From a virus (Duplodnaviria; Heunggongvirae; Uroviricota; Caudoviricetes), in the IMG/VR virus record IMGVR_UViG_2562617113_000020, positions 1-14,367 of that record: a DNA stretch of 14,367 nt. One strand, given 5' to 3'. A program made the translations under genes and the position numbers. Positions within the stretch are counted from its first letter, which is position 1. Each line of letters begins with the position of its first letter. Under the pieces are notes generated by a model that was given only the letters and a program-made list of their open reading frames with translations, ran no database searches and was not told the DNA's origin. Below are positions 10,517 to 11,341 of this stretch, piece by piece.

Positions 10517-11290
10517 TCAAAAATTAGGTGAGTAACGGACCGGGGACATAGCTCCTTTTTTTCTTAATTCATCTGGTATTTTTTTTCCAAGATAAAGATT
10601 TGCTATTTCAGGTGGGGCTTCTCGACCTTCAAAACCATAGCGAGAACTTTGTGTTGCCTCAAAGTCAGTATCTTCGTCCCAGTATTTCATCGTAGGGAAA
10701 TTTTCACGTGTTGATTTGAGCCATTTATCAGCAATGAAAACCCCTCGAACGATCCCCCTTACAGTAGCAAGAATGACTTCTGCTTGGCTGGCGCGAGAGA
10801 CATTAATGCGCCAGCTAAATCGAACCGCATCATAAAGCTCTGAATCCTTTGCACTTCTGTTAACGGAAATCATTAATGCTTTATGATGAAATGTTATGGT
10901 TTCGGGTTGATATGTTGCTATCAACTCTTTGACATGCGCGGCGCCGAATTCATTGCTGCCAGCACCATTCATGATATTCGTTAACCCAGGGTAGGCATCA
11001 ATAAGTGCTGCTTCAACTTCGTACGCCGTCTTTTCATCAGTCATTCCGTGTCGATGGATGACGTGGATAACTTCAAGTCCTGCTAACCTTATTTCTCTGA
11101 TTTGCTTTAGCTTGTTGCTCAGTAACTCGTCATCATCAGCCGCTGCCACCTCACCGCGCATATGGGCAAATACGCGGTTACCTTTGCCTTTCCCTACATA
11201 GAAGGTGCTTCCGTCCCTAGGATCAATCAATCGGTATACATACCAGCCAAGGTGTTCAATTACTCCAGAAGGAAACTCAGTAATATCCAT
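10517..11290 (-). CDS. Stand-alone GIY-YIG nuclease-domain protein with ~160-aa C-terminal region of unknown function
   Basis: N-terminal motifs YVYRL-(10 aa)[10 protein letters not shown] with downstream His, Glu (EVEAAL) and Asn (NIMNG) at spacing typical of the GIY-YIG catalytic core; ATG at 11288-11290 (MDITEF...) preferred over the upstream TTG at 11339-11341; no recognisable SD. Confidence 0.75.
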
Positions 11291-11341
11291 TTTGCAATAT
11301 CTGTGAATTATTTGTGAGACGCATATTAATGAACATTGCAA

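Follow-up and report, generated by a model that had tools for sequence, protein, structure and literature searches.

What kind of nuclease lies directly behind the DNA invertase of this phage genome, and is it a new one? The gene sits on the minus strand of a 14,367-nt stretch of DNA from a tailed virus (Caudoviricetes; the whole stretch is referred to here as the window) and was originally predicted, from the sequence alone, to encode an uncharacterised GIY-YIG nuclease that might act as a modification-dependent nuclease, an abortive-infection effector or a homing-type endonuclease. The first of these three proposals has stood and the other two have not. It is nearly identical to the gene of an E. 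coli restriction enzyme that has been described and crystallised, and is thus one more example of a defence gene already known. It was discovered in 2022 as PD-T4-3, first recovered from E. coli ECOR68 in a functional selection (Vassallo et al. 2022; PMC9519451), and a paper of 2026 gave its structure and mechanism under the new name CMoRE (Liu et al., Nat Commun 2026; PMC12923530), so that it can be called neither new nor uncharacterised. The original prediction had itself named what would count against it, a match to a family that is well characterised and whose function is known, and such a match, to CMoRE (PD-T4-3), was found; the interpretation was partly right because the gene is that of a modification-dependent, single-gene defence nuclease.

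The open reading frame at 10517-11341 (-), which a mechanical listing gave as 274 amino acids from a TTG start and which the prediction adopted, is real, but its start is wrong. The actual coding sequence is 10517-11290 (-), beginning with the ATG at 11290 and comprising 257 amino acids plus a stop codon, and the TTG-extended version is not supported. The ATG is taken as the start because three observations agree: relatives carry 774-nt coding sequences at the same place in the RefSeq annotation, the PDB chains align over residues 1-257 beginning at MDITEF, and numbering from ATG-11290 reproduces the published positions of Y17, Y19, Y31 and Y127.

PADLOC, proposed beforehand as a check for a defence gene, returned a full-length match to profile PDLC04031 (PD-T4-3; E = 1.6e-140, 465 bits, protein residues 1-256 against profile positions 1-255 of 256). 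A phmmer search of the PDB found 9U75 (E = 1.4e-171) and 9U7U (E = 1.1e-150), both aligned without gaps over residues 1-257. The published CMoRE entries are 9U75 and 9U8D for the E. coli O157:H7 enzyme and 9U7U and 9U7Z for that of APEC O1 (PMC12923530). The window protein is identical to chain 9U75_A at 253 of 257 positions (98.4%) and to chain 9U7U_A at 219 of 257 (85.2%). PHROG 5356 (unknown function) also matches the protein over its full length, and NCBIfam has no match for it.

The predicted intact GIY-YIG core is borne out by the Pfam domain LEM-3_GIY-YIG (PF22945), which matches residues 28-110 (E = 2.4e-14), and by Y17, V18, Y19, Y31, G33, K34, G35, R39, H43, E93 and N105, which are invariant in seven homologues down to 31% identity. 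From knowledge of the GIY-YIG family we take R39 and E93 to be the catalytic pair. Every residue named in the CMoRE paper is present in the window protein, namely Y17, Y19 and Y31 of the GIYxY-YIG motif, D52-E55 of the acidic loop, R80, the tetramer-interface residues V92 and L96, and Y127, and R39, H43, E93 and N105 are present in addition, so the motif comes with its conserved Arg and Glu. The nuclease domain, supported by the Pfam match, the invariant residues and the published description, occupies 10955-11290 (-), and the “GIYxY” half of its motif, Y17-V18-Y19, lies at 11234-11242 (-) (PMC12923530). The four consecutive acidic residues of the autoinhibitory loop, D52-D53-D54-E55 (11126-11137, -), read DDDE, identical to the APEC O1 enzyme, and DDDD in O157:H7.

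The C-terminal region had been described as belonging to no recognisable family, and neither Pfam nor NCBIfam indeed matches its ~140 amino acids, PF22945 being the sole Pfam match in the protein. It corresponds to the modification-sensing domain that includes Y127 (10520-10915, -; residues ~126-257, with an approximate boundary) and matches the crystallised chains residue for residue in the gapless alignment to 9U75 and 9U7U. The authors of the structures describe this domain as a novel fold with no detectable homologues or structural homologues (PMC12923530).

Four positions separate the window copy from the O157:H7 enzyme (9U75): E55 (D in 9U75, E in 9U7U), Q169 (K in both), N197 (H in 9U75, N in 9U7U) and T208 (P in 9U75, D in 9U7U). 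E55 and N197 are the residues of the other active crystallised enzyme, that of APEC O1. Q169 and T208 lie outside the positions named in the paper, and position 208 differs between the two active enzymes; T208 is private with respect to the four relatives compared, all of which have P208. Because the named residues are all present and the differing positions are either tolerated or unnamed, sequence comparison indicates that the window gene is almost certainly CMoRE (PD-T4-3) and that its product would act by the same mechanism. That mechanism was demonstrated for the 98.4%-identical O157:H7 enzyme, and we infer it for the window copy.

The O157:H7 CMoRE lowers plating of phages T2, T4 and T6 by ~5 logs, and cultures carrying it grow normally at an MOI above 1, as do those carrying the ECOR68 PD-T4-3; because the cultures survive at this MOI, the defence is direct and not abortive (PMC12923530). 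T4 DNA is lost genome-wide within minutes and without strict sequence requirements, while reads from host DNA are unchanged (PMC12923530). The purified enzyme needs Mg2+ or Mn2+, binds and cuts DNA containing 5hmC or glucosyl-5hmC, and neither binds nor cuts DNA containing C or 5mC; likewise, T4(hmC) stays sensitive and T4(C) escapes (PMC12923530). Cleavage occurs at CN11/N9G, leaves 2-nt 3' overhangs and requires two modified sites (PMC12923530). Deletion of the native gene from the clinical isolate NILS69 renders it sensitive to Tevenvirinae, and a Capnocytophaga homologue with 48% identity is a modification-dependent nuclease in vitro; given at a high dose, it cuts Mu DNA too.

Structurally, the N-terminal GIY-YIG domain has an extra tyrosine that makes its motif GIYxY-YIG (Y17, Y19, Y31), and its active site lies under an acidic loop of 15 residues; a 4A mutant, in which four acidic loop residues are replaced with alanine, is toxic and cuts unmodified DNA (PMC12923530). 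In the solved complex structures 5hm-dCTP is bound by the C-terminal domain, its 5-hydroxyl bonding the main chain of Y127 (PMC12923530). The enzyme is a tetramer, and a V92S/L96S mutant shows that assembly is required; active-site, loop and interface mutants have all been assayed (PMC12923530).

We predict that the window protein is a tetramer built from two dimers, whose C-terminal domains would bind 5-hydroxymethylcytosine or glucosyl-hmC in DNA. One dimer would read two modified cytosines ~21 bp apart, and the N-terminal GIYxY-YIG nuclease would then cut between them in the published pattern (CN11/N9G, 2-nt 3' overhangs, Mg2+ or Mn2+). The acidic loop D52-E55 over the active site would exclude unmodified or 5mC-containing host DNA, and incoming T-even phage DNA would be degraded within minutes with survival of the cell.

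Homologues of the enzyme are also found in phages. Full-length homologues with 39-45% identity occur in jumbo phages of Serratia, Pectobacterium, Pantoea, Pseudomonas and Klebsiella. At 31-45% identity, full-length homologues are encoded by the jumbo phages Serratia phage Moabite and its relatives, Pseudomonas phage OBP and Klebsiella phage N1M2 and by the E. coli phage PhiR41_1, a circular phage genome of ~108 kb that also encodes ParA. In the phage loci compared the genes lie at 1501-2265 (L009), 1492-2253 (L010), 1498-2244 (L011) and 1456-2223 (L012). The phage homologues keep the catalytic residues, and the four-residue acidic run of the autoinhibitory loop is absent from them.

The gene's other neighbour is, as predicted, an EcoRII-like restriction-modification (R-M) system. 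It consists of a Dcm/M.EcoRII-type C5 methyltransferase gene (11693-13124, +; Pfam and PADLOC) and an intact EcoRII-type restriction endonuclease of 402 amino acids (13159-14367, -; Pfam EcoRII-N plus EcoRII-C, PADLOC REase_II with E = 1e-232) that differs from its counterpart in E. coli strain R12 at three amino acids. The methyltransferase gene is split by two 1-nt deletions relative to the intact 477-aa R12 gene, which shorten T8 to T7 and A7 to A6 at 12333-12339 and 12363-12368. Apart from them, the ~10 kb aligned to R12 is free of indels, and the two together occur in none of the 261 E. coli genomes with the segment. Either the sequence is in error at these points or the gene has truly been lost, and a true loss could be tolerated if a chromosomal Dcm covers CCWGG. 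The EcoRII-type system would cut unmodified CCWGG, and with CMoRE beside it the two would jointly cover hypermodified and unmodified phage DNA. This local pairing may make biological sense, in that hmC/ghmC DNA, which would escape the EcoRII-type enzyme, is the target of CMoRE.

The two frameshifts in the methyltransferase gene mean that the locus may be decaying or that the sequence may contain errors, and they bear on whether the window copy of CMoRE is present without being active, because it is poorly expressed or because its private substitutions impair it. We consider this unlikely. A consensus scan for promoters and terminators gave nothing convincing for the CMoRE gene and no Shine-Dalgarno sequence could be pinned down for it, so that neither a promoter nor a ribosome-binding site is recognisable; moreover, the APEC O1 gene protects only weakly from its own promoter (PMC12923530). 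At the protein level, T208 is private among the relatives compared and Q169 replaces the lysine of both crystallised enzymes. Against this, the gene has an unbroken reading frame that keeps every key residue, and position 208 is P in one active enzyme and D in the other. The region upstream of the gene, its presumed native promoter (11291-11500, -), travels with it, homology to O157:H7 and to other genomes without the R-M system extending up to 11484-11500; these 195-210 nt are the same as in O157:H7, whose gene gave strong protection from its native promoter (PMC12923530).

Another alternative is a free-standing GIY-YIG homing endonuclease that spreads selfishly by cutting cognate sites lacking the gene. 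It draws on the labels “putative homing nuclease” and “G-I-Y Y-I-G endonuclease” attached to the full-length jumbo-phage homologues with 39-45% identity, on a weak match to PHROG 314 “homing endonuclease” (E = 0.0021) and on the travel of the CMoRE gene as a compact cassette. The jumbo-phage annotations are, however, untested labels, and the PHROG 314 match is marginal and falls mostly inside the GIY-YIG domain. The Pfam search shows the nuclease core alone, with no attached NUMOD, HTH, zinc finger or other homing-type DNA-binding module of the sort found in I-TevI-like enzymes, and the near-identical protein depletes T4 DNA genome-wide, spares host DNA and requires hmC (PMC12923530). Homing is thus very improbable for this gene, a reading already largely refuted by the published biochemistry.

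Equally improbable is that the protein acts in abortive infection or as a toxin and so kills the cell under attack. The toxicity of the 4A acidic-loop mutant and its cutting of ordinary DNA indicate that the nuclease can harm the host if unleashed, but wild-type cultures grow at MOI >1 with unchanged host reads, and ECOR68 PD-T4-3 behaves alike (PMC12923530). Cells thus survive the infection, and the acidic loop is intact in the window copy (DDDE).

Type II GIY-YIG restriction enzymes such as Eco29kI exist, and the CMoRE gene is adjacent and divergent to the Dcm/M.EcoRII-type gene. That it should be the nuclease of a type II pair with this C5 methyltransferase, or a 5mC-dependent reader of Dcm methylation (the original prediction had raised a link to dcm), can nevertheless be put aside as barely conceivable, since the methylase is already paired with its cognate adjoining EcoRII endonuclease, the cassette has no obligatorily linked cognate methyltransferase and lacks an R-M neighbour in many genomes (no methylase is nearby in O157:H7, L004, or in L008, and L002 has the R-M system without the cassette), and CMoRE neither binds nor cuts C or 5mC DNA (PMC12923530).

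At least 807 of 5426 complete E. coli genomes have >=80% of window 10440-11660 at 95-99% identity, and ~15% of complete E. coli genomes carry the CMoRE gene. RefSeq names it either “LEM-3-like GIY-YIG domain-containing protein” or “hypothetical protein”, and given such generic names for so common a gene the present result helps annotation. The whole block of pin, CMoRE, methyltransferase and endonuclease is found in 239 genomes. The closest relative is strain R12 (99.4% identity), in which the block lies beside ssrA at the end of a prophage whose tail is of the Mu type.

The gene travels in a cassette of ~1.04 kb (10458-11500), whose limits are the points at which homology to genomes with other neighbours breaks, ~10458 on the left (10457-10459 against pin-free genomes) and ~11484-11500 on the right. 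CMoRE is the sole open reading frame of at least 60 amino acids in the cassette, and the neighbours differ on both sides across genomes, in agreement with the predicted single gene without a partner. The gene is also AT-richer than the prophage genes, as had been noted, with 43.7% GC against 56.9% for window 1-7700 (phage structural genes).

Both edges of the cassette carry an imperfect 22-nt direct repeat, GAAACCGTAGCACGTCGTATGC at 10458-10479 and AAACCGTAGGCACGTAGTATGC at 11479-11500; the two were matched by a fuzzy pattern, as they differ by a 1-nt insertion. The copy on the left forms an arm of a stable hairpin with a 12-13-bp stem (10458-10498), which lies at the homology break between the convergent pin and CMoRE genes. 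Its folding energy is -23.6 kcal/mol (z -5.2) on the plus strand and -19.8 kcal/mol (z -3.2) on the minus strand, and it is likely to be a bidirectional terminator. Together with ~90 nt of flank, the hairpin occurs 6672 times in 4041 of the 5426 E. coli genomes and at several module junctions; in relatives it lies at L002 3665-3705 and 7155-7195, L007 3520-3640 and L008 4540-4660. PGAP annotates the element in part as a “capsid protein” fragment. A search of 9800-14367 against Rfam gave a single sub-threshold match, to the Shigella chromosomal sRNA CssrB (RF02799; 32 bits where the gathering score is 76, E = 6e-4), which spans the pin 3' end and the hairpin (10437-10493), and five related loci gave no family at the gathering threshold. 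As Rfam has no match at the gathering score, the junction element does not belong to any of its curated families.

The right edge (11466-11500) is made up of a tRNA-Ser anticodon-arm fragment, GGACCGGTCTCGAAAACCG at 11466-11484, overlapping the second copy of the 22-nt repeat. This fragment is identical to the anticodon arm of tRNA-Ser(CGA), and it is no more than a fragment, since ARAGORN, run on the window and on four related loci, finds a tRNA gene in none of them. The O157:H7 sequence continues from here with the remainder of the tRNA-Ser 3' half (L004 5031-5102), which agrees at 97% with annotated tRNA-Ser genes; an old attachment site would be expected to look like this. The fragment at the edge and the 3' half following it in O157:H7 suggest that a prophage once ended with pin-CMoRE at a tRNA-Ser gene and that this end was later joined to the EcoRII module next to ssrA.

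On its left the cassette adjoins the pin-type serine invertase (9905-10459, +; 184 amino acids from MLIGYV, Pfam Resolvase plus HTH_7), which corresponds to pinE in relatives. The pin stop codon lies 58 nt from that of the convergent CMoRE gene, which places the nuclease directly after the invertase as the prediction stated. Upstream is an invertible tail-fibre segment of 1.8 kb (7986-9843), in which genes for alternative fibre tips and for assembly face both ways. It is bounded by 20-nt inverted repeats (7986-8005 and 9824-9843) that are 95% complementary, and the adjacent pin invertase would be expected to act on it.

The proposal of a cargo slot behind the invertase also holds, as the position is occupied by mcrA after pinE in e14 and by Septu PtuA/PtuB plus an FRG-domain protein after pin in strain 165. 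In two E. coli prophages the slot after pinE holds a gene for a 215-aa protein (3601-4248, -, in both L005 and L006) that has no Pfam or PADLOC match and is a candidate unknown defence gene. We raise as a tentative possibility, more doubtful than not, that the post-pin slot with its different occupants (mcrA, Septu, CMoRE and the 215-aa gene) is a recombination hotspot at which defence cassettes are swapped at prophage ends, the 215-aa occupant being a new defence gene. Such a hotspot would be comparable to those of P2 and P4, and its cassette packaging may not have been described before; a literature search of incomplete coverage found no described post-invertase defence hotspot, which is a weak negative. 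The junctions of the cassette, and the slot with its changing occupants, could help in looking for more defence genes.

How does the window gene compare with other nucleases of its kind? It has the GIY-YIG catalytic fold in common with I-TevI-type homing endonucleases but differs from them in having no NUMOD/HTH tail and no intron or target-gene context, and in depending on modification instead of targeting a sequence. The ghmC-directed type IV enzymes GmrSD and BrxU are single-protein or fused defences against T-even phages with glucosylated DNA; they are NTP-dependent and built from DUF262 plus DUF1524 (HNH-like) domains, and Pfam and PADLOC searches reveal no sequence relation between them and CMoRE. 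McrA of e14 occupies the same slot directly after pinE at the prophage end and is also a one-gene, modification-dependent type IV enzyme, but it is an unrelated protein, an HNH nuclease encoded on the other strand, and it targets 5mC/5hmC in sequence context, whereas CMoRE ignores 5mC. The hmC/ghmC-specific type IV enzymes of the PvuRts1I / AbaSI family likewise cleave at a fixed distance, ~11-13/9-10 nt from the modified C, between two symmetric sites, and combine a PD-(D/E)XK-type nuclease with an SRA-like domain. CMoRE is specific for hmC/ghmC and not 5mC, like the PvuRts1I / AbaSI family, from which it differs in joining a GIY-YIG nuclease to a sensor without detectable homologues (PMC12923530).

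With the published CMoRE (PD-T4-3) the window copy shares the family, the full-length architecture, the GIYxY-YIG motif, the acidic loop, the interface residues and Y127, and it is likewise a single gene associated with a prophage. It departs from 9U75 at E55, Q169, N197 and T208, and from the O157:H7 locus in its surroundings, being joined to an EcoRII-type R-M system beside ssrA where O157:H7 has a tRNA-Ser-derived end.
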